Assembly: GCA_964569045.1 (NCBI GenBank)
Contig: CAZMSR010000002.1
Location: 43,272-107,271 of the forward strand
Reading direction: 5' to 3'
Source: an uncultured Gammaproteobacteria bacterium
Lineage (GTDB): Bacteria; Patescibacteriota; Patescibacteriia; Patescibacteriales; BS150m-G62
Length of the DNA stretch: 64,000 bases
Below, one piece after another: positions 5,866 to 46,446 of this stretch (position 1 is its first letter; the number at the start of each line of letters is the position of its first letter). A program made the position numbers and the translations under genes. The notes beneath the pieces are model-generated. The model was not told the DNA's origin and ran no database searches. It saw only the letters and a program-made list of their open reading frames with translations.

Positions 5866-7076
5866 TTTTTTAAAAACTTTAAATATTCACTAGTAATGTC
5901 ATCTAAGTCATGATCAAGAATTAATTTTTCATTTTTATTTATTTTATAACTAGGTCTACCTAAATGATCTTTGCCAGACTTTTCAGATACTGCCATGAAT
6001 ATTGGGTAATCATATAATCTATTGTCACGTGCAAACCAACGCCTTAAAAAAACTATACTTGTTTTAGTATCAGTATATGGCCTAAAAATATTTCGATCTA
6101 AGCTAATTATAGCTAAAATTTGAGCGTTAGCTAGCAAATACTTACGCACATTTGCCATGTTTTTATTATTAAGGACTCCTTGCGGCAATATAATTGCAGC
6201 GCGTCCACCCGGCTTTAAGAGGTCAAATACTCTTTCTAAAAAAAGAATATGCCTATCCATTCTTGGTCGCAACCTATTGTTTTCATCCATTGATAACTCA
6301 TATTCTTTTAAAATTTCTTTATTAGTAATATCACCTGAAAAGGGAGGGTTTGTTAGAATGCAGTCAAAGGTATGTTTTTTTAAACCTAGCTTATTCCATA
6401 TGGGTATATTTATTGTATCTAACTTATTTAAATTGTATGCATATTTATCTCCGGCAATAATTTTAATAGCCTGCGCTATTTTTATTGACTTATCATCAGC
6501 ATCAATACCATAAATATTTTTAAGATTTATTTTGGAATCTACTTTATTTTTGTAAATATAATTTAAAGAATTAATTAAATAACCGCCTGAACCACAAGCC
6601 GGGTCTAGAATTAATTCAGTATTTCTCGGTTTTAAAACATCTACCATTAATTTTATTACATGCTCAGGAGTAAAATATTGACCACGCTTTTTTTTAGCTA
6701 CTTCTGGCAATATATATTCAAAAGCATCAGTAGCCTCACTAATACTACAATCAAGTATGCTTATTGGTGCTAATATATTTATACAAGCCTCTAAACATAA
6801 AGCGTTTAAATTAAATTTTTCTTGAGAGGCAAACACATTTGACCATTTAGACCTAGCTTTTTGAAATAATTTTTGAATATTTTTACTTCTTTCTTTTGAA
6901 TTAATAAACTTTGGCTTGTATTTATTATTTTTCACATCTAACTCATCCACTAACTTTACATAAATAAGCTTTAATACCTCAGAAAAAACATCAGCCCCGG
7001 ATTTAATTATAATAGCCTCTTCTAATTGACAGATTATATCTTTCAAATTTTTTTGCGAATCTAATTTATTATTCAT
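5862..7076 (-). CDS. hsdM: N6-adenine DNA methyltransferase (type I HsdM-like)
   Basis: SAM motif I DPACGSGGYL and catalytic motif IV TNPPF. Translationally coupled to hsdS. Confidence 0.85.
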   Translation of the reverse strand: MNNKLDSQKNLKDIICQLEEAIIIKSGADVFSEVLKLIYVKLVDELDVKNNKYKPKFINSKERSKNIQKLFQKARSKWSNVFASQEKFNLNALCLEACINILAPISILDCSISEATDAFEYILPEVAKKKRGQYFTPEHVIKLMVDVLKPRNTELILDPACGSGGYLINSLNYIYKNKVDSKINLKNIYGIDADDKSIKIAQAIKIIAGDKYAYNLNKLDTINIPIWNKLGLKKHTFDCILTNPPFSGDITNKEILKEYELSMDENNRLRPRMDRHILFLERVFDLLKPGGRAAIILPQGVLNNKNMANVRKYLLANAQILAIISLDRNIFRPYTDTKTSIVFLRRWFARDNRLYDYPIFMAVSEKSGKDHLGRPSYKINKNEKLILDHDLDDITSEYLKFLKK

Positions 7077-7187
7077 AATTTAATTGTACTATAAAAGAAA
7101 AACTAATGCATTATCCGTACTATTTAACATAATTGTAATATTATTTTTTGTTTAAATTTAAAAAAAAGTTTATAATAAACTCATAAG

Positions 7188-13104: not shown

Positions 13105-13731
13105 ATGATTATTACATACAACGGCTTGTCATGTTTTAAATTACTGTCTAAACCTACAGAAGGAACATCTGTAATTATTAATCCATTCCACGAAGACACC
13201 GGCTTAAAACCAAATAAAAATCAATCTAATCTAGTTATAATCGGATCTTTAAGTAAATACATAAATAAAAAATCGCAAAATAAAGAAAGTTTTTTAATAA
13301 ACACGGCCGGAGAATTTGATGTTAAAAATATCGGCGTTAAGGGTATTGAAATAAAAGGAAATAAAATTAATACAATAATTTTTAGAATCACTATTAATAA
13401 TATTAGTTTTATTCATTTAAGTGATTTAGATCGAACTTTAAGCACAGAAGAACTTGAAGAAATCAACGGTACAGACATACTTGCAATACCGGTTGGAGGT
13501 AATAGCGTACTCAACAGCTCAAAAGCAAAAGAAGTTGTTAATCAAATTGAACCAAGAATAGTAATTCCTATGTTATATAAACTACCAAACCTAATTATAG
13601 ACCTAGATGATCTAGAAAAATTCAAAAAAGAAATTGGAATTGAAGCCACATTTGAAGACAAGCTTCGTATAACAAAAAAAGACCTCCCGCAAGAGGACAT
13701 GGAATTTGTAATTTTGAATGCAAGACAATAG
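13105..13731 (+). CDS. Putative MBL-fold metal-dependent hydrolase (UPF0173-like)
   Basis: 208 aa. The MIITYNGLSCFKL start and length resemble short beta-lactamase-fold hydrolases. The classic HxHxDH motif is not obvious. Confidence 0.45.
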   Translation: MIITYNGLSCFKLLSKPTEGTSVIINPFHEDTGLKPNKNQSNLVIIGSLSKYINKKSQNKESFLINTAGEFDVKNIGVKGIEIKGNKINTIIFRITINNISFIHLSDLDRTLSTEELEEINGTDILAIPVGGNSVLNSSKAKEVVNQIEPRIVIPMLYKLPNLIIDLDDLEKFKKEIGIEATFEDKLRITKKDLPQEDMEFVILNARQ

Positions 13732-15705: not shown

Positions 15706-16293
15706 CTATGGTGGCGGTCCTAACACCTCCTCTGTTACCGGGACTCTTCTAAGTGGCTCTGCCACTTGTTCATAATTATTACTACTAGTTGTTTTTTTTA
15801 AAACTTCCAACCCTTTAACAGGAGGCTCTCCTTTTAAAGCAGTAATAGTGAACTGAATAATAAGATATGAACAAAAAATAATAGCTAATCCAATTACTGA
15901 ATTTAAAAGTATACCCTTGCCTTGAGTTACTCTTTCAGAACTACCGGCAGAAGTCAAGAGAACAACTCCACCGTATATAAAAAACAACAAAGTTACTGAT
16001 CCGGAAATTCCTAAAATAAAATTTGCTACTTTAATTATAAGCCTTTCAAAATCAACTAATGTACAACCACCATCACTTCCTGTGCAATTAACTAATCCTT
16101 TTTCATTATTCGCAGATACCTTAGAAACATTAATCCTCACTCCTCGGCAATCATCAATCTCTCCACCAGCCTCAAGACACTCTTCATTCATGTAAAAAAG
16201 AAACTCATTCCCAACAGTAAAACTCAACGGAATAAAGAATAATACTATTCCAATAATAAATTTAAATGGCGTTAAAAACAACTTTTTATGCAT
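15706..16293 (-). CDS. VirB2/TrbC-like small membrane pilin-family protein (divergent eighth member), Cys-containing ectodomain
   Basis: C-terminal module ...ILGISGSVTLLFFIYGGVVLLTSAGSSERVTQGKGILLNSVIGLAIIFCSYLI has the same two-helix layout as the 36-40 kb array. The ATG at 16293 (MHKKLF...) avoids the 32-nt overlap implied by the track start at 16329. Confidence 0.55.
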   Translation of the reverse strand: MHKKLFLTPFKFIIGIVLFFIPLSFTVGNEFLFYMNEECLEAGGEIDDCRGVRINVSKVSANNEKGLVNCTGSDGGCTLVDFERLIIKVANFILGISGSVTLLFFIYGGVVLLTSAGSSERVTQGKGILLNSVIGLAIIFCSYLIIQFTITALKGEPPVKGLEVLKKTTSSNNYEQVAEPLRRVPVTEEVLGPPP

Positions 16294-16297
16294 TTTT

Positions 16298-17665
16298 TTA
16301 ATATATTGTCTGCTGAACCTTTTGCGCACCTAAGTTAATTACGTTTTGCAATTTAGATCCATCAGCTCCGGCATTATTTATCATTTCATGAATTATGTTT
16401 TCCGCAGCATCATAATTTTTACCTCTATACCAACTTTTGGAAGTTAGTACTTGCCCGGCAAAAACACCAATATTTTCATCATTTATTTGCTGAGTTGCCA
16501 CAACTCTTAAAGCTGATGGTTTTTTTGTTTTTCTTAAGTAAGATTTAACATTTTCAGCTTTTGCGGCAAATTGAATAAAATCCCAAGCCTCATTTGAGTG
16601 TCTACTCTTTTTTGAAACTGTCTCAACCCAATAATTAGCAAAATTCATACTTCTACTTGCTCCTTCTATTTGCGGCACCGGAGCTATGCCAAAATTCAAC
16701 TGTGGTGCGCGAGCCTTTATAGTTGACTGATGATATGAATATCCAAGCATCATAGCCAAACTCCCTCTAATAAACATTTCAAGAGAATTATTAAGATTAT
16801 TATTCCAAGTATATACCTCTTTGGTTGAGTTAGAAAAATCTGTATAAAACCTTAGCGCCTCAAGGCCGGGGTTATACTTTTGTGCTTTGTAAGCAGCAGG
16901 GATTGCATGAAAAGCCACTGTACCACCGCTTGTCATTTGAGCTCCATTTTGCATCATTAGTAATGATAATATATCAAATGAACGCTCTACATTTCTTGCC
17001 CCGCCCAAAGCTATTCCAGATTGAATTATTTTACCTCGAACATCAATTTTTGTAAGCCTTTTAACGTATTGTTGAAGCTCTTTATTCCAATATGCCGGTG
17101 GCTCTGCTATACCGGAATTGTTAAATAAATCACGATTATAGTACAAAGCCATAGTATCTACCGACAAAGGAAGGCCATACACCTTACCGCCAATAATGAC
17201 ATCATTAAAAACAGTATCAGCAAAATTATTTTTAATTTGAGTTAGAGTTATGCTTTTTACTGTTCTGAGTTCAGGAATTACTTCTTTTTTTAAACTACCC
17301 TTTACTATCGGATAAGCCATTGTTATACTAGCCGGCATTACTCTTATTTTATTCTTGTATTTATTAATCCACGTATTATGAATACTAAACATATCCGGAC
17401 CTCTATCCTCGGCTAAAGCGTCCACTATAGCGTCTTCATATTCTTGGTAACGCAATTTTCTATAATTAATATTAACAAACGGATGAATTGCTTTGTAAGC
17501 CGCTATAATATCTGAAAAAGAATCCTCACCATCAAAAACCCTCCAATACTTAAGCGTTACCGGCTTCATAGCACTTTCTGTTTCTTTTGTTGCTATCTTA
17601 CATCCAAAGCCGGAAGTTAATATAAAAACAAATATTAAAAATAATGTTGTTAGCTTAGAAGTCAT
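16298..17665 (-). CDS. ABC-type extracellular solute-binding lipoprotein (sugar-type SBP family 1)
   Basis: Lipobox LTSGFGC after a signal peptide. 455 aa with SBP_bac_1-like features. No permease or ATPase gene adjacent. Confidence 0.75.
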   Translation of the reverse strand: MTSKLTTLFLIFVFILTSGFGCKIATKETESAMKPVTLKYWRVFDGEDSFSDIIAAYKAIHPFVNINYRKLRYQEYEDAIVDALAEDRGPDMFSIHNTWINKYKNKIRVMPASITMAYPIVKGSLKKEVIPELRTVKSITLTQIKNNFADTVFNDVIIGGKVYGLPLSVDTMALYYNRDLFNNSGIAEPPAYWNKELQQYVKRLTKIDVRGKIIQSGIALGGARNVERSFDILSLLMMQNGAQMTSGGTVAFHAIPAAYKAQKYNPGLEALRFYTDFSNSTKEVYTWNNNLNNSLEMFIRGSLAMMLGYSYHQSTIKARAPQLNFGIAPVPQIEGASRSMNFANYWVETVSKKSRHSNEAWDFIQFAAKAENVKSYLRKTKKPSALRVVATQQINDENIGVFAGQVLTSKSWYRGKNYDAAENIIHEMINNAGADGSKLQNVINLGAQKVQQTIY

Positions 17666-18148: not shown

Positions 18149-18985
18149 TCAATTACTGCGGACCAAGAACACCGAGGCCGACCCATAGCGCGAGTAGAAG
18201 TAGTCGACCCGGTTAGCGCCAAAGCCCAGGCGACCGTCGTCGAAGTCGAAGAGAGGCGCGAACGAGAAATCGCCACCGACGTCAGGTGCGTACTTATCCC
18301 CTGGGCAGTCGATGAACAAGTTCTCATGGGCCACGAGACGCTCGGGATGAGTTGCGAGCATGGAAACGATAACAAATGCTCCTAGACCGTATTCTTCGAC
18401 GGGAAACTCATCGCACACCTTGCGCACGCTCTTTCCGCGATGGAGGAAGCCGAATTGCGCCCAGATAACCCAGTAATCACCCGTCTGGGTTTTCCCGAGT
18501 TCATCGTAGAGCTCACGGGTCCTCTGACTCTCCCGCAAATACTTTGGTCCGAGGTTGTCTCCCCGATAGTTGTGGAAGTTGCGCTGGCCCGCGATAATGG
18601 CGAATATGGCCTTGAGAGCCGTGCCGTACTCGTCGGCCATGCGTTTCCACTTCGGGATGATGAAAAGAGCCTCTGCTCCCTTGGGGCGTTCTTTCGCTAA
18701 CTCCTCGGCCAATTCAAGCACGCCGTCGGTGGAGAGCCTGGGAAGCGTCTCACTCCAAAAGGCGAGCTGGTCGGCAGGGGATTTGGGCTCGTAACCCTTG
18801 GGGTAGCCGTAGTTGGACTCGGTTACCTCGTTGGCGTAACGACCGCGTGGTTTCTGCTCCTCCTCTTTTTCGTGTTTCAAAAAACTGGTCAAACGCTCCC
18901 TTGTGATGTGCCCCTCCTTGACTTGGCGCCAAAACTCTTGCATTTGACCAGGGGTTACATCACTTCCGTGCAGTGTGTCAATCAT
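18149..18985 (-). CDS. Hypothetical protein encoded on a ~58% G+C island (no family recognised)
   Basis: 278-aa ORF with a strong SD (taggaggatgttaccATG), its own promoter and its own terminator. The other ORFs overlapping it are stop-poor artefacts of high GC. Confidence 0.7.
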   Translation of the reverse strand: MIDTLHGSDVTPGQMQEFWRQVKEGHITRERLTSFLKHEKEEEQKPRGRYANEVTESNYGYPKGYEPKSPADQLAFWSETLPRLSTDGVLELAEELAKERPKGAEALFIIPKWKRMADEYGTALKAIFAIIAGQRNFHNYRGDNLGPKYLRESQRTRELYDELGKTQTGDYWVIWAQFGFLHRGKSVRKVCDEFPVEEYGLGAFVIVSMLATHPERLVAHENLFIDCPGDKYAPDVGGDFSFAPLFDFDDGRLGFGANRVDYFYSRYGSASVFLVRSN

Positions 18986-21240: not shown

Positions 21241-21253
21241 TTTTTATATTTAT

Positions 21254-21413
21254 GGGACTGTCGCCAAACTCGCTTCACCCATAAATTGTTAATTTTGGCT
21301 AAATTTTTTTTAAATTTTTTTGGCTTACCTTAGGGTAGGCCTCAAAAATTATTCAAAAAATTTATCTTAAAATTTCCAAATTTATGAATTAAAACGAGTT
21401 TGGCGACAGTCCC
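21254..21413. repeat. 160-bp long-palindrome element, class E2, copy a
   Basis: 19-bp perfect terminal inverted repeat gggactgtcgccaaactcg / cgagtttggcgacagtccc. The arms are complementary over most of their length, with centre ggcttaccttagggtaggcc. Nearly identical copy at 46260-46419. Confidence 0.9.
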
Positions 21414-21548
21414 TTTATTATTAATTAATTTTATCATAATCATAACAAAATAAGCAAACGCAACAAAAGTAAATATTCACCAATCAAAAAAACAAAAAAT
21501 ACCCTGCTTGTTTGGGCATTTTTTGTATATTGCTTTTTATTTTACTGT

Positions 21549-36155: not shown

Positions 36156-36542
36156 TTAAGAAGCTACGCTAGTTACTATGCTGTTGGTTATAAAGGTTGT
36201 TATTGCCCAAGAGCTTAATACTATTAGTAATCCGATAATGGCTCGGCGTATGGTTGCTAGGGCTGTTTTTATTTTTTCTTCGTCACCTTGGGCTGTTAGG
36301 TAATTGTAACCGGCATATATCATTAAAATTACAAAAATAATTCCTAAAAACCCTAAAAATATTTTTATTACACCGGCGATTATTAAGCGTGGGTCTTGCT
36401 CGTTAAAGCCTGCATTGCCTCCTACGCTTTTTAATCTTTCTAATGCTTTTGAGTCGGCAAATACAAAATAAGGTACTATTAAAAATCCAACTAAAGTAAA
36501 TGTGCTAAAAAATAATTTTATTTTTTTTTTGAAATTTTTCAT
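36156..36542 (-). CDS. VirB2/TrbC-like mini-pilin paralog 7 of 7
   Basis: Signal-like N-terminus, then conserved module IKIFLGFLGIIFVILMIYAGYNYLTAQGDEEKIKTALATIRRAIIGLLIVLSSWAI. ATGA overlap with the upstream paralog. Confidence 0.7.
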   Translation of the reverse strand: MKNFKKKIKLFFSTFTLVGFLIVPYFVFADSKALERLKSVGGNAGFNEQDPRLIIAGVIKIFLGFLGIIFVILMIYAGYNYLTAQGDEEKIKTALATIRRAIIGLLIVLSSWAITTFITNSIVTSVAS

Positions 36543-36922
36543 ACAAATTGCTCTATAATAAACACACTAATAGCATACGCACTCATTACGATTAATAGTC
36601 CGATTATTGCTTTTTGAATTGTGCCGACAGCATTTTTTATTTCTTCTTCATTACCCCGTGCCATCATATACTTATAACCGCCATATATTATTAAAATTAC
36701 AAAAATAATTCCAAAAAAACCGAGCACTACCTTAATAACCTGCGAAATTATACTTTCCGGCTCGGTAACACCGGTATCATACCCGGCACCGCCTGTTCCG
36801 GCAACAGTTTCTAAAGTGTTACCAAAAGCATCTTTAAGACCGGCGGCAAATATTGGAACAGCAGCAAAAGACAAGCTAAAAACAACAGCAAAACCAATAT
36901 ATATTAAAAATCTTTTTAGCAT
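36539..36922 (-). CDS. VirB2/TrbC-like mini-pilin paralog 6 of 7
   Basis: Signal peptide ...SFAAVPIFAAG. Module IKVVLGFFGIIFVILIIYGGYKYMMARGNEEEIKNAVGTIQKAIIGLLIVMSAYAI. Confidence 0.7.
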   Translation of the reverse strand: MLKRFLIYIGFAVVFSLSFAAVPIFAAGLKDAFGNTLETVAGTGGAGYDTGVTEPESIISQVIKVVLGFFGIIFVILIIYGGYKYMMARGNEEEIKNAVGTIQKAIIGLLIVMSAYAISVFIIEQFV

Positions 36923-36976
36923 TTTATTTGTATAATTTATTGCGAAATAAGGTCCATATTTATATCAAGCTCCTCC

Positions 36977-37429
36977 TCAGTCAACGCCCCCCCCCGAAGG
37001 GTCAATGCCGGTTGGAGTATCAGCAAAACCGCCAATATTACTTATAACAAAAAGACTAATAGCATAAGCTAAAACTACAACAATAAGCCCAATAATTGCA
37101 TTGCGGATTATTGTTATTGCTTTTTCTACTTCTTGTTCATTACCCCGCGCCATCATATATATATACCCACCGTAGATCATTAAACCAAAAAACACAATCC
37201 CTAAAAAACCCAAAACTATTTGTATAATTATTGTTATGATTGTAAAAGGTGAGCCTGCCTTCAAAGTCGGTACAGCTCCGTATGCGGCCTCTCCGGCATC
37301 AACAAGCCCGCTTTCTTCTTCAAAACTTGCTCTAGAAACATCAGCAACAATAAAAAACCCAATAAAAAATATAAAAATCAAAAAAAACTTTAAATAACAC
37401 TTATACATATTTCTACAACCTAAAAACAA
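36977..37429 (-). CDS. VirB2/TrbC-like mini-pilin paralog 5 of 7 (with extra C-terminal tail)
   Basis: Module IQIVLGFLGIVFFGLMIYGGYIYMMARGNEQEVEKAITIIRNAIIGLIVVVLAYAI plus the tail GGFADTPTGIDPSGGGVD. Alternative start at 37408 (MYKCYL). Confidence 0.7.
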   Translation of the reverse strand: MFLGCRNMYKCYLKFFLIFIFFIGFFIVADVSRASFEEESGLVDAGEAAYGAVPTLKAGSPFTIITIIIQIVLGFLGIVFFGLMIYGGYIYMMARGNEQEVEKAITIIRNAIIGLIVVVLAYAISLFVISNIGGFADTPTGIDPSGGGVD

Positions 37430-37433
37430 TGCA

Positions 37434-37832
37434 TTATATTTCTCCTGTTAATGCTCCACCAACAAACGCTGTTATAGCGTAAGCACTCATAACTATTACA
37501 ATCCCAATAATTGCTGCAATTATTAAATCTTTAGCCTTAGTTATTTGCTGTTCATTCCCTCGAGCAGTCATCCAAAGCAAACCTCCATAAATCATTAAAA
37601 TCAAAAACAACACTCCAACAAAACTTAAAACAACCCCAATAACACTACCCAAAATAGTTAACACAGGAGTCTCCGGCAATTTAACAATATCTTGAGTATT
37701 ACTTAATCCACTCCTTACAGCTTCGGCACCGGAAGGCGAATCTACGGCCAAAGCTAATTGTGGGGTAAATACAAAAAAAAGCGCCATTGCAAAAATCGGC
37801 AAACTACTTAACTTATTAATTACACAAAACAT
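37434..37832 (-). CDS. VirB2/TrbC-like mini-pilin paralog 4 of 7
   Basis: Signal ...TPQLALAV. Module IGVVLSFVGVLFLILMIYGGLLWMTARGNEQQITKAKDLIIAAIIGIVIVMSAYAI. Confidence 0.7.
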   Translation of the reverse strand: MFCVINKLSSLPIFAMALFFVFTPQLALAVDSPSGAEAVRSGLSNTQDIVKLPETPVLTILGSVIGVVLSFVGVLFLILMIYGGLLWMTARGNEQQITKAKDLIIAAIIGIVIVMSAYAITAFVGGALTGEI

Positions 37833-37868
37833 TTAAACATTTACAAATTCTAGTCTTATACGCATCTA

Positions 37869-38102
37869 TTTAAAACTTTTTACAAAAAAGTTCTTAATAT
37901 TTCAAAAACATAAGGTATTTTTTAAAATTTTATAGCGAGCAAAGCTCTTCGGCCATAAAATTTGTAAAAAATGATCTGCTTTTGGTTTAAAACTTTTTAC
38001 AAAAAAGTTCTTAATATTTCAAAAACATAAGGTATTTTTTAAAATTTTATAGCGAGCAAAGCTCTTCGGCCATAAAATTTGTAAAAAATATTTTTCTTTT
38101 GC
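37869..38102. repeat. Tandem 117-bp repeat, 2 copies (37869-37985, 37986-~38102)
   Basis: The copies are identical for roughly the first 100 bp. Each holds the palindrome AACTTTTT-ACA-AAAAAGTT and the hairpin attttat-agcgagcaaagctcttcgg-ccataaaat. The block is flanked by the inverted repeat tctagtcttatacgcat (37848-37864) / atacgcataagactaga (38116-38132). Confidence 0.9.
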
Positions 38103-38160
38103 TTTAAAATCATAAATACGCATAAGACTAGAGCAATCTAGGGATTAATCACGAGTAACC

Positions 38161-38203
38161 TTTAAAACTTTTTACAAAAAAGTTCTTAATATTTCAAAAA
38201 CAT
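38161..38203. repeat. Partial (43-bp) third copy of the 117-bp repeat
   Basis: tttaaaactttttacaaaaaagttcttaatatttcaaaaacat is identical to the first 43 bp of the unit. Confidence 0.9.
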
Positions 38204-38246
38204 ACTACTCACTCACTCGCAATCAATTTAAGATTGCCCGTAATCT

Positions 38247-38765
38247 TTATGTTGTTGCTGCTAGTGTTGAAATAACATACTGCGCAATTCCAAAAGCAGA
38301 CATTATGATCACTAAGCCGATAACTCCGGCTATAATTAGGTTCCTAGCTTCTTCTACTTTATCCTCGTTGCCCTGCGCCGTCATCCACTTAAACCCGCCA
38401 AGCAATATGATAATAACCGCGATTATGCCAAGAAAACCAAGAATCACGTTAATAACGCCGGTGATGATAGTCATAGGTCCTTCTGTACCGAGATTTAATT
38501 GTCCCGCACCTCCACCACCACCACCTGAAACACCACCCCAGAAGCCGCCTGTGGGGGTTACACCGTTAGAATCTCCATTAGATTGATCAACTTCGCAGGT
38601 GCCTGCATCAGCATCATCATCAGTTGCTGCAGTAACTACGCAAATCTCATCAGTATTACAGTCATTATTTACCACACTACACACCGCCTTCACCTCCAAA
38701 GGAACTAAGACTAGTGCGAAAATAAAGGAAAAGCAGAAAAATATATTTAGTATTTTTTTTGTCAT
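38247..38765 (-). CDS. VirB2/TrbC-like mini-pilin paralog 3 of 7 (Cys-, Asp- and Gly-rich ectodomain)
   Basis: SD aggaggtg. Signal ...LVPLEVKAV. Variable region with 5 Cys and GGGGGG. The C-terminal 54 aa are identical to paralog 2. Confidence 0.75.
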   Translation of the reverse strand: MTKKILNIFFCFSFIFALVLVPLEVKAVCSVVNNDCNTDEICVVTAATDDDADAGTCEVDQSNGDSNGVTPTGGFWGGVSGGGGGGAGQLNLGTEGPMTIITGVINVILGFLGIIAVIIILLGGFKWMTAQGNEDKVEEARNLIIAGVIGLVIIMSAFGIAQYVISTLAATT

Positions 38766-38933
38766 AATTCACCTCCTTTCATAATTTTAAGTAATTATGG
38801 GTATTTATTTTTAAATTTGGTTAAAAATAAAGCCCAAAATATTTATTTTTTTATAATTAATAATATTTTAACCTAAATTAGTTACCAGTCTTAATAATAA
38901 AGCAATTCTAAACGCAATGGTAAACTATTATCC

Positions 38934-39356
38934 TTATAATCCTGTTGTTGTTTTCATTTGACCAATCACAAACTGCGCGATTCCAAAGGCGGACATTATG
39001 ATCACTAAACCGATAACTCCGGCTATAATTAGGTTCCTGGCTTCTTCTACTTTATCCTCGTTACCCTGCGCCGTCATCCACTTAAACCCGCCAAGCAATA
39101 TGATAATAACCGCGATTATGCCAAGAAAACCAAGCACAACGTTTATAACGCCAACAATAACCTCTATTGGTGTTTTTGTGCCAAGGCCGACAGCAACTGC
39201 AACGTTCGCTGAAGTTCCTTCCCCTCCCGTCTTCCAAAAAGCAGCATCAGCATCAGTATCAGTATTAGCATTTACCGGCGCAGCAAAAAGAACAAAGACA
39301 AAGACGGCTGCGAGGGCTGTTATTTGTTTTAGGTATTTAGTTATTTTTTGTTTCAT
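38934..39356 (-). CDS. VirB2/TrbC-like mini-pilin paralog 2 of 7
   Basis: SD aagggggtg. Signal ...LFAAPVNAN. Module LGFLGIIAVIIILLGGFKWMTAQGNEDKVEEARNLIIAGVIGLVIIMSAFGIAQ. Confidence 0.75.
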   Translation of the reverse strand: MKQKITKYLKQITALAAVFVFVLFAAPVNANTDTDADAAFWKTGGEGTSANVAVAVGLGTKTPIEVIVGVINVVLGFLGIIAVIIILLGGFKWMTAQGNEDKVEEARNLIIAGVIGLVIIMSAFGIAQFVIGQMKTTTGL

Positions 39357-39407
39357 ATAACACCCCCTTTCGTTTGTTTTTTAATCATTAGCTTGTGTTT
39401 AAAACTT

Positions 39408-39548
39408 TTTATAAAAAAGTTCTTAATATTTCAAAAACATAAGGTATTTTTTAAAATTTTATAGCGAGCAAAGCTCTACGGCCATAAAATTTGTAAAAAA
39501 TGATCTGCTTTTGGTTTAAAACTTTTTATAAAAAAGTTAACTAACTAG
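39408..39548. repeat. 117-bp repeat, 1.2 copies (fourth locus)
   Basis: Differs from the 37869 copy at 2 positions that I can see (tacaaaa->tataaaa, cttcgg->ctacgg). A 24-bp restart at 39525 runs into the stop of paralog 1. Confidence 0.9.
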
Positions 39549-39942
39549 TAATTCCAATCAATTCGCTAGTAACAAAAGTCGCTATTGCAAAGGCGGAAAG
39601 TATTATGGCTAAACCTATTACAGCTTGAGTTAAAAGTGTTTTAGCTTCGGTTACTTGATCCTCGTTACCCTGCGCTGTCATCCATTTAAAACCGGCAAGG
39701 AGAATTAAAATAACAGCAATTATACCAAGAAACCCAAGGATTATCTTAATTACGTTAGCAATAATAACTCTGGGGTCTTTTTTCTCGTCTAAGCCGGTAG
39801 CGCCTGCTAAATTAGCTCTAGTAGCACCACTAACATTATCACCCCAAACATCAACACCGGCACTTACCGGGGTTGCTATAAAAATAAAGGCAAAGGCAAA
39901 TGAGAATAAGCTTAGGAATGTTTTAATTAATTTTTGCTTCAT
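39541..39942 (-). CDS. VirB2/TrbC-like mini-pilin paralog 1 of 7
   Basis: Signal ...IATPVSAGV. Module IKIILGFLGIIAVILILLAGFKWMTAQGNEDQVTEAKTLLTQAVIGLAIILSAFAI. Confidence 0.72.
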   Translation of the reverse strand: MKQKLIKTFLSLFSFAFAFIFIATPVSAGVDVWGDNVSGATRANLAGATGLDEKKDPRVIIANVIKIILGFLGIIAVILILLAGFKWMTAQGNEDQVTEAKTLLTQAVIGLAIILSAFAIATFVTSELIGITS

Positions 39943-40055
39943 AGTTTGGTATATTTAAGTTAAAAATAAATAATAGTTATTAACATATAGTTAATATAAT
40001 AATAGCATAATTATATAATGTGGGAAATATAAAAAAAGCAAAAACTCAGCTATAT

Positions 40056-40111
40056 GGGACTGTCGCCAAACTCGCTTTAATTCATAAATTTGGAAATTTT
40101 AAGATAAATTT
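40056..40111. repeat. Half copy of the E2 palindromic element (one arm, inverted relative to 21254 copy's right arm)
   Basis: gggactgtcgccaaactcgctttaattcataaatttggaaattttaagataaattt matches the reverse complement of 21358-21413 with one mismatch, then diverges. Confidence 0.85.
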
Positions 40112-40182
40112 CTTTGACAAAATTTAATAATAGGCTAAGATAGAATTATAGGGAATAATGTAATAAATTTTAAAAATACTAT

Positions 40183-45821: not shown

Positions 45822-46259
45822 ATGTTATCAGACTACAGCAAAATATAGCATGCGTCAATTAAATTTATTGCATCTACTTTTTGTATTGTACAATTAATAA
45901 CGAAGCTGTCGCCAAATTTGCTTTAATTCTAAATTAAAAAATTTTAGCTAATTCTTGCCACACAGCACACAATCAAAAACATTTTTCAAAAATAGAGTAA
46001 AATAAATTAGCTTTTTACAAGAGATTGAAGTGTAGTATAATACTAGCAAATAATTTTTATTTTGTCAATAAAAATGCTATGTAATGACTACAATTTTGAT
46101 GAAATCATTTAGCTTACCTCTAAATTTTGATTTTGCTCAGCATTAGTATTTCTTTAAAATAAGTCTTCGGTAACAATAGCTTCAAGTAGTGTTGTACCAT
46201 ATCCTACTGACTTCCATCTAGCAGCATGATGCACATCTCATGACATATTCCACCATATT

Positions 46260-46419
46260 GGGACTGTCGCCAAACTCGCCTCACCCATAAATTGTTAATT
46301 TTGGCTAAATTTTTTTCAAATTTTTTTGGCTTACCTTAGGGTAGGCCTCAAAAATTATTCAAAAAATTTATCTTAAAATTTCCAAATTTATGAATTAAAG
46401 TGAGTTTGGCGACAGTCCC
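46260..46419. repeat. 160-bp long-palindrome element, class E2, copy b
   Basis: Same length and termini as 21254-21413. I see only a handful of substitutions (e.g. cgcttc->cgcctc, aaaacgag->aaagtgag). Confidence 0.9.
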
Positions 46420-46446
46420 ATTACCAATAGAAACTTAATGTTTAGC

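Follow-up and report, generated by a model that had tools for sequence, protein, structure and literature searches.

How did two neighbouring pilin genes, which differ through most of their exposed parts, come to carry an almost identical stretch of DNA in their interior? This question is raised by a stretch of 64,000 nucleotides (nt) of contig CAZMSR010000002.1 (assembly GCA_964569045.1, positions 43,272 to 107,271 of the forward strand), hereafter the window, from the low-GC (~31-32%) chromosome of a Falkowbacteria-like Patescibacteria bacterium. Seven small tandem genes, P1 to P7, lie there on the minus strand between positions 36156 and 39942. Recombination between two of them, P2 and P3, is required to account for what they share. 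In our preferred reading, to which we assign a probability of about 0.6, P2 and P3 are old paralogs whose core was later homogenised by gene conversion, with the product fixed in the sampled population. The two genes and the two copies of the shared block are as follows.

38934 to 39356, minus strand: P2, open reading frame (ORF) matching PF18895 (E = 2e-10), predicted 140-amino-acid (aa) VirB2-like pilin with a short Ala/Thr-rich ectodomain.
38247 to 38765, minus strand: P3, ORF matching PF18895 (E = 1.1e-9, 38.7 bits), predicted 172-aa VirB2-like pilin.
38964 to 39152, minus strand: shared block, P2 copy, codons 69-131.
38271 to 38459, minus strand: shared block, P3 copy, codons 103-165, which encode the pilin core (transmembrane (TM) helix 1, loop, TM helix 2).

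The shared block and its boundaries

The two copies align without gaps over 189 nt with 12 mismatches (93.7% identity). An original prediction, made from the letters of the sequence for the slightly shorter segments 38280-38459 and 38973-39152, had reported a gap-free match, about 6 substitutions in the first ~150 bp and a perfect run of ~70 bp; the alignment indeed has no gap over these 180 nt, with 10 mismatches in total, exactly 6 of them within the first ~150 bp, and the longest perfect run counts 71 nt (38371-38441). Likewise, the 54-aa stretch LGFLGII...GIAQ described as common to both proteins is identical in P2 and P3, and its 6 nt differences are all synonymous. Among the 63 codons of the whole block, 9 show a synonymous difference and 2 an amino-acid change (V/I and F/Y), which corresponds by the Nei-Gojobori method to 9.5 synonymous and 2.5 nonsynonymous differences, i.e., to 0.19-0.25 substitutions per synonymous site (dS) and 0.012-0.018 per nonsynonymous site (dN). 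A dN/dS ratio of ~0.07 indicates strong purifying selection.

The limits of the block are abrupt. When the protein-guided codon alignment of P2 and P3 is scanned for two breakpoints by maximum chi-square, exactly these 189 nt are selected: 12 differences fall inside the block and 103 among the 207 nt aligned outside it (chi2 = 90, versus at most 17.8 in 300 permutations). Variants that distinguish the P3 copy from the P2 copy lie at 38442-38451 and 39135-39144, respectively. The aligned flanks, at ~50% nt difference, are saturated, whereas dS in the block is ~0.2; the sharp mosaic boundary proposed earlier, as opposed to a gradual decay of similarity, is supported by both the alignment and the scan. 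The block coincides with the PF18895 domain and with the two confident helices of the P3 structural model. It had been presented as a 3' cassette; this has to be amended, as the block is internal, and the last 8-11 codons, the stop codon and the downstream DNA diverge. In particular, the tail of P2 (QFVIGQMKTTTGL) and its downstream spacer are unlike those of P3.

Upstream of the block, the N-terminal halves are divergent, not unrelated as first thought. Both begin with a signal peptide and contain the acidic motif TD(x)DADA (18 of 21 nt identical) and the family-wide motifs FWG and LGT-x-P, and both genes are preceded by the same unusual Shine-Dalgarno (SD) sequence. What sets the N-terminal part of P3 apart from that of P2 is mainly a pair of Cys-rich insertions plus a stretch of poly-Gly: after its signal peptide, P3 has a 76-aa Cys/Asp/Gly-rich ectodomain with 4 Cys and then the two-helix core. 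At the nucleotide level, nothing in the array is close to the 5' half of P2.

Assembly chimerism was considered as a source of the block and rejected, the copies differing at 12 positions with the same phasing in independent JGI, ENA and Logan assemblies. We also rejected a nested, younger conversion as the origin of the 71-nt run, whose length is within chance expectation for 9 synonymous differences (P = 0.12).

Synonymous sites across the seven paralogs

The identity of the core has to be judged against the rest of the array, whose other members are:

39541 to 39942, minus strand: P1, ORF matching PF18895, first pilin of the array and ortholog of gene Q1 of a relative described below; its core is 70% nt identical to the P2/P3 block.
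37434 to 37832, minus strand: P4, ORF matching PF18895, 'IYGG-type' pilin.
36977 to 37429, minus strand: P5, ORF matching PF18895, 'IYGG-type' pilin.
36539 to 36922, minus strand: P6, ORF matching PF18895, 'IYGG-type' pilin.
36156 to 36542, minus strand: P7, ORF matching PF18895, 'IYGG-type' pilin.

P4 to P7 together span 36156 to 37832. The core protein is strongly conserved across Patescibacteria, where it is the most conserved part of the family, and identical core residues therefore say little by themselves. Codon identity was consequently scored at positions of equal residue only, leaving out Met and Trp. At 84% of these positions the codons of P2 and P3 coincide, versus 17-57% for the 20 remaining pairs of paralogs; at the 127 polymorphic sites of the core they match at 115, the other pairs at 36-72. 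Together with the saturated flanks, this excess implies that neither a uniform old duplication, which had already been judged insufficient, nor selection on the protein alone suffices.

The maximum-chi-square scan singles out the P2/P3 block, whereas a GENECONV-type run test inside the core is not significant for this pair (P = 0.06), since the tract fills the entire core. As a separate observation, the cores of P6 and P7 (36554-36742 and 36186-36374) give a marginal GENECONV-type signal, with 14 polymorphic sites matching in a row (P = 0.0024, uncorrected for the 21 pairs compared), possibly an older exchange between these overlapping neighbours.

The array in a syntenic relative

P0003, the full-length homolog that best matches P3, is encoded on contigs L179/L180, whose gene order (IF3, L35, L20, SecG, solute-binding protein, RNase J, a 71-aa protein, the pilins Q1 to Q7 and a glycosyltransferase) is syntenic with the window. 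The correspondence is P1 with Q1, P3 with Q2, P4 with Q3, P5/P6 with Q4/Q5, and P7 with Q6. P2 has no counterpart, Q1-Q2 there standing against P1-P2-P3 here, and is hence a lineage-specific extra gene relative to L179/L180. The positional orthology of P3 and Q2 is visible in their common signal peptide, SD motif and downstream spacer. P2, P3 and Q2 carry this strong SD motif as GAAAGG[G/A]GGTG (38766-38790 and 39357-39380 in the window; L179:6640-6670); among the other genes inspected, a strong SD sequence was seen only at a high-GC ORF at 18149-18985, and most others in both genomes have AT-rich upstream regions lacking one.

Core and flanks of P2 tell different stories. Of the four comparisons made with its N-terminal part, those with Q1 and P1 score best (z = 14.6 and 10.6) and that with P3 scores lowest (z = 7.0), and P3 itself is closest to Q2 in this part (z = 13.1). 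In the core, P2 and P3 are identical at 57 of 58 aa, Q2 agrees at 48-49 of 58, and P2 agrees with Q1 and Q2 at 45-48 of 58. As the core groups P2 with P3 and the flanks do not, core and flanks are incongruent, a classical signature of recombination between paralogs, here based on short sequences and one relative. The block copies of P2 and P3 are equidistant from Q2 (~72% nt identity), the P3 copy being marginally closer to other genomes. A search anchored on RNase J in 80 genomes found pilins beside this gene only in L017 and in L008, the latter cut by the contig end.

A probable conversion patch and its rivals

In the history that we favor, P2 and P3 would descend as old paralogs from one Q2-like ancestor. 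Their exposed N-terminal parts would have diverged by substitutions and insertions, P3 acquiring its 4-Cys, Gly-rich ectodomain, before a later non-reciprocal homologous exchange copied a core of ~190 nt (TM helix 1, loop and TM helix 2) from one gene to the other, presumably in a single event. Since then, the copies would have gathered ~10 synonymous and 2 conservative changes under purifying selection. The paralogs keep 60-70% DNA identity only in the core segment, and it is probably because no other segment is similar enough in DNA to start and resolve recombination that the tract is limited to it. A homology-limited conversion patch fits best, since the block has two boundaries and coincides with the sole segment of 60-70% identity; the window also encodes RecA, which is in favor of conversion. 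By analogy with what is known of VirB2/TraA pilins, identical cores would allow P2 and P3 to pack in one filament, with differing N-terminal extensions decorating its surface.

Several observations nevertheless weigh against this history. GC content at third codon positions (GC3) is 0.49 (P2) and 0.44 (P3) in the block versus 0.29 (P2) and 0.32 (P3) in the N-terminal parts, and it ranges over 0.22-0.27 in the cores of the other paralogs and 0.17-0.27 in the window's remaining low-GC genes. Compared with Q2, AT-to-GC and GC-to-AT synonymous differences of the block stand at 15:4 and 18:6, whereas they are balanced or reversed in other ortholog pairs. As simple intragenomic conversion does not predict such a rise in GC, this GC3 island hints at GC-biased conversion or a foreign source. 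In addition, donor and recipient are indistinguishable for the block, and with two clear cases in 83 arrays (see below) a function of keeping the cores identical is not established.

With one close relative only, it is also possible, though we consider it rather unlikely, that P2 was born as a chimera, a partial duplication or unequal exchange having joined a copy of the P3 core to a different 5' half; the identity of the block would then date from the origin of P2 and not from the conversion of a pre-existing complete gene. That P2 is an extra gene relative to L179/L180, with an N-terminal part resembling P1/Q1 but an SD motif and core resembling Q2/P3, agrees with such a birth, as do the obvious chimeras of array L017, in which genes 12940 and 13600 share 362 nt from their start and differ at their 3' ends. 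However, the block is two-sided, the tail and downstream spacer of P2 are unlike those of P3, the array holds no close nucleotide relative of its 5' half, and the middle gene expected from one unequal P1-P3 crossover would have the 5' part of P3 and the 3' part of P1, the opposite of what is observed.

The GC3 island invites a different explanation, namely that the block was imported by homologous recombination from a GC-richer Patescibacteria lineage, either into both genes or into one and then spread. GC3 is raised only within the block, with an AT-to-GC excess at synonymous sites relative to both Q2 and Q1, but GC3 in the N-terminal parts and tails is ordinary, the 178 fetched loci contain no pilin gene matching the block at more than 75% nt identity, and a search of 5.8 billion protein clusters returned nothing above ~74% core identity besides P2 and P3; import thus appears improbable. 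Least credible of all is a history free of recombination, in which extreme purifying selection and codon constraint would have preserved the core between fast-evolving ends. The core is the family's most conserved part in Patescibacteria and the low dN/dS of the block is in line with this, yet protein selection leaves synonymous sites unpreserved, pairs with cores 50-70% identical share only 17-57% of their same-residue codons where P2 and P3 share 84%, and the contrast between saturated flanks and a block dS of ~0.2 contradicts it. An old conversion of the core remains the reading that we prefer.

Population contigs and the 117-bp element

The population comparison was made on assembled contigs. 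P2 and P3 are identical in ~15 contigs of the same population, drawn from JGI, ENA and Logan assemblies of many metagenomes, and the 90%-identity clusters of a 15-billion-protein collection contain no variant or chimera of either protein, the exact sequences only. An exact 35-mer of the block had 0 matches in the metagenome_contigs collection, which is evidently without the source samples. The exchange is neither recent nor ongoing. Two candidates for variation were rejected: the '142-aa variant' of gene 3 seen in JGI contigs differs only in its start call, its DNA being unchanged, and a few population single-nucleotide polymorphisms (contigs L092 and L094), considered as micro-conversions from paralogs, show no consistent match.

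The spacers around P2 and P3 carry copies of a structured 117-bp element:

39391 to 39538, plus strand: 1.25 units of the 117-bp element in the P1-P2 spacer, antisense to the pilin genes.
37862 to 38126, plus strand: two tandem units of the element in the P3-P4 spacer.
38161 to 38204, plus strand: 44-nt partial copy, inserted in the hairpin directly downstream of P3.
37849 to 38132, no strand: 21-nt inverted repeat (arms 37849-37869 and 38112-38132) bracketing the two tandem units, fold z = -9.7.

The copies at 39391-39538 and 37862-38126 flank P2 and P3 (38210-39390) as direct repeats, with a spacing of 1529 nt from 37862 to 39391. The Q2-Q3 spacer of L179 has a hairpin to which the arms of the 21-nt repeat are orthologous, so the 117-bp units were inserted into the hairpin loop.

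Some assemblies differ from the window in this region. In contig L089, P1 is joined to P4 via a chimeric copy of the element; L003 has the order P3-R-P2-P3-R-P2-P3, R standing for the repeat; and L006 has one 117-bp unit fewer at both sites. L003, however, is exactly 2 x 1529 + 55 nt long and perfectly periodic, with the same 55-mer at both ends, inside the 71-nt identity of P2 and P3. The differences of L089 and L003 from the window are confined to the repeat, their junctions lie within it, no linked polymorphisms accompany them, and contigs L001 and L002 end within the 117-bp repeat. These assemblies with 0, 1 or 2 copies of P2 and P3 may therefore reflect a repeat-collapse artefact rather than real copy-number variation.

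Could the locus nonetheless reshuffle its ectodomains at present, by pilE/pilS-like cassettes or by repeat-mediated excision and amplification of P2 and P3? The mosaic pattern itself, the 1529-bp P2+P3 unit between direct copies of a structured element, and the assemblies in which this unit is missing (P1-R-P4 in L089), doubled or cyclic (L003) or bordered by fewer repeat units (L006) would all suit such programmed variation. But each of the seven genes is complete, has a start codon, a signal peptide and a stop of its own and can be translated by itself, which leaves no silent cassettes; the block has a dS of ~0.2 since the last exchange; no allelic or chimeric P2 or P3 protein was seen in the 90%-identity clusters; L003 and L089 show the signature expected of a repeat collapsed in a de Bruijn graph; and no recombinase gene was seen next to the array among the ORFs scanned with Pfam. 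Such a system is thus very improbable here. We would grant slightly more credit, though still little, to P2 and P3 forming a recombinationally active cassette which loops out (L089) and amplifies (L003) in the population while GC-biased conversion keeps the cores identical; if true, it would act as an on/off or dosage switch for two surface pilins in an epibiotic Patescibacteria bacterium, and repeated GC-biased conversion between P2 and P3 would account for the GC3 island. Regarding the original proposal of gene conversion or cassette recombination onto a constant anchor, the need for recombination stands, and the notion of an active cassette system is not supported, in view of the complete genes, the dS of ~0.2 and the absence of variants. 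An old conversion of the core, fixed in the population, remains the favored account.

The element also occurs elsewhere. A core of ~96 nt is ~84% identical in four other genomes, with 8 copies:

L030:6702-6799, 7021-7115, 13199-13294 and 16902-16997: copies of the ~96-nt element.
L027:583-698 and 950-1051; L018:1188-1284; L022:788-884: copies of the ~96-nt element.

This conservation of ~84% at the nucleotide level is found between genomes whose RNase J proteins are only 70-76% identical. Every copy in these genomes is located between co-oriented genes, its end 18-22 nt away from the start codon that follows, as in infC-[E]-rpmI-[E]-rplT, E being the element, unlike the copies of the window, which are antisense to the pilins. 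It forms an A/U hairpin and a 3' hairpin, the latter showing compensatory changes in 4 of 15 pairs, and it contains a promoter-like TTCAAA-N16-TAAAAT site, found in the window at 37901-37928, 38018-38045 and 39430-39457 on the plus strand. Rfam returned nothing at the gathering score or at E up to 1, save a meaningless Ysr35 fragment.

Core mosaics in other arrays

A survey of 83 loci (470 pilin genes, 1108 within-array pairs) places P2 and P3 at the extreme of the distribution: core identity within arrays has a median of 47% and a 99th percentile of 91%, versus 98% for this pair. A mosaic restricted to the core was found in this survey only here and in L124 (L124:5263-6329), an unrelated, GC-richer array in which a 189-aa Cys-rich, Gly-linked pilin adjoins a short pilin of 137 aa. 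The L124 pair shares a two-sided block of 225 nt (93% identity, 157-nt perfect run, dS 0.23), and its N-terminal parts differ. Four or more Cys after the signal peptide are common among the pilins surveyed (43 of 470). That a long Cys-rich pilin and a short one with an identical core are seen twice is a hint that compatible cores may be selected for.

Several arrays (L017, L106, L119 and L160) contain recent duplicates of whole genes. In L017:12940-14572, a six-gene array beside RNase J, in addition to the two genes identical over their first 362 nt and different at their 3' ends, a third gene carries the C-terminal segment common to genes 12940 and 13600.

VirB2-like pilin arrays are widespread in Patescibacteria and their diversification has barely been studied. 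P2/P3 and L124 point to a modular evolution of these arrays, in which N-terminal extensions diverge freely and gain Cys-rich domains, and the core can be re-homogenised by conversion. This is of practical use for aligning, clustering and dating pilins, because trees based on the core will mislead, and shared cores suggest which paralogs may co-assemble.

Protein family and surroundings of the array

All seven proteins are predicted from their sequences to be VirB2-like pilins, and polymerisation into a pilus is likewise predicted from the family. Indeed, 7 of 7 score 31.2-41.1 bits with PF18895 (T4SS_pilin), above the gathering cut-off of 26.6 bits, and their matches to TrbC/VirB2 (PF04956) are sub-threshold (17-24 bits versus 27.9). 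In each, 35-75 variable residues separate a signal peptide from a conserved core of two hydrophobic helices with a short polar loop, as seen in the sequences and in the P3 model. In this AlphaFold model, P3 has a helix at 2-28 and helices at 97-129 and 134-171, the latter two with a predicted local distance difference test (pLDDT) score of ~90, and an ectodomain below 60. A Foldseek search of the model against the PDB returned generic helical hairpins only (top match ATP synthase subunit c, E = 0.37), a two-helix hairpin being too simple to discriminate, and a profile search of PDB sequences gave nothing relevant.

On one side, the array is bordered by housekeeping genes, namely IF3, L35, L20, SecG, a solute-binding protein (SBP_bac_5) and RNase J; on the opposite, low-coordinate side lie a 130-aa ORF without Pfam match, two Fic genes known from precomputed annotation and a glycosyltransferase. 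The segment 33219-36012, with the two Fic-domain genes and the 130-aa ORF between array and glycosyltransferase, is absent from L179/L180, which have Q7 there. RecA, FtsK and RNase Y are encoded farther from the array within the window. Among the 27 window ORFs that were scanned with Pfam, we found no component of a type IV secretion system (T4SS), virB4 included, and no recombinase or integrase near the array.

Further features of the window can be mentioned. An eighth PF18895 pilin gene (15706-16329, minus strand; 207 aa, 5 ectodomain Cys) stands alone, 20 kb off the array, adjoining a solute-binding protein gene and close to recA. A second repeat family of ~165 nt has copies at 21253-21417 and 46259-46423 (97% identical, partly self-complementary) and a half copy at 40054-40125, directly upstream of P1. 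Finally, the ORF at 18149-18985 (minus strand, 278 aa) has 56% GC (GC3 0.68) in a genome of 31% GC, its own GGAGG ribosome-binding site, no Pfam match and GGGTTATCCA-containing inverted repeats on both sides; it looks like a recently acquired foreign gene.

Comparison with known systems

Gene conversion among pilin paralogs that yields mosaics of constant and variable segments is known from pilE/pilS of Neisseria. There, one expressed gene is accompanied by promoterless, truncated silent cassettes, exchange occurs at high frequency and variants are present in every population; the pilin is that of a type IV pilus and belongs to a different protein family from T4SS pilins. P2 and P3 match none of the defining features of this system that could be tested, with no silent cassettes and no variant mosaics.

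Tandem arrays of 2-11 VirB2-like pilins (PF18895/PF04956) have been described in Patescibacteria, with a within-array aa identity of 25% on average and 54% at most, and a role in adaptation to host strains has been proposed for them, by analogy with Bartonella and Anaplasma (PMC12102498). The arrays listed include that of TM7x, and that of Ca. Southlakia epibionticum is essential according to an earlier study cited there (PMC12102498). Family, tandem organisation, kind of organism and high divergence of the members are the same here; in contrast, the searched passages of that work describe no near-identical DNA blocks or conversion, whereas P2 and P3 have 98%-identical cores. A pilin was reported near virB4 in 1135 of 1948 assemblies, so that this linkage is not strictly defining (PMC12102498); unlike those cases, the present array sits in a housekeeping region beside RNase J, with no virB4 or T4SS gene among the scanned ORFs. 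The same source mentions multiple divergent tandem virB2 paralogs in Anaplasma phagocytophilum, thought to vary the exposed surface (PMC12102498). The likeness is at the level of the array, and A. phagocytophilum is an intracellular animal pathogen.

A precedent is provided by the tandem paralogs trwL (a VirB2 homolog) and trwJ of Bartonella, for which diversifying selection and concerted evolution have been described (Nystedt et al., 2008, as cited in PMC2883598). Both systems have tandem VirB2-type paralogs with variable surface parts, recombination among copies and a copy number that varies between lineages, and a link with host specificity has been proposed (PMC2883598). Bartonella is, however, a diderm alphaproteobacterium adhering to erythrocytes, with the locus inside a complete T4SS operon, whereas the window belongs to a Patescibacteria chromosome, with no secretion genes found nearby and a single old patch. 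Pilin arrays of Patescibacteria and concerted evolution of VirB2 paralogs were thus both already known, and no new mechanism is involved here: P2 and P3 are another case, in a different phylum, of concerted evolution of the Bartonella type.

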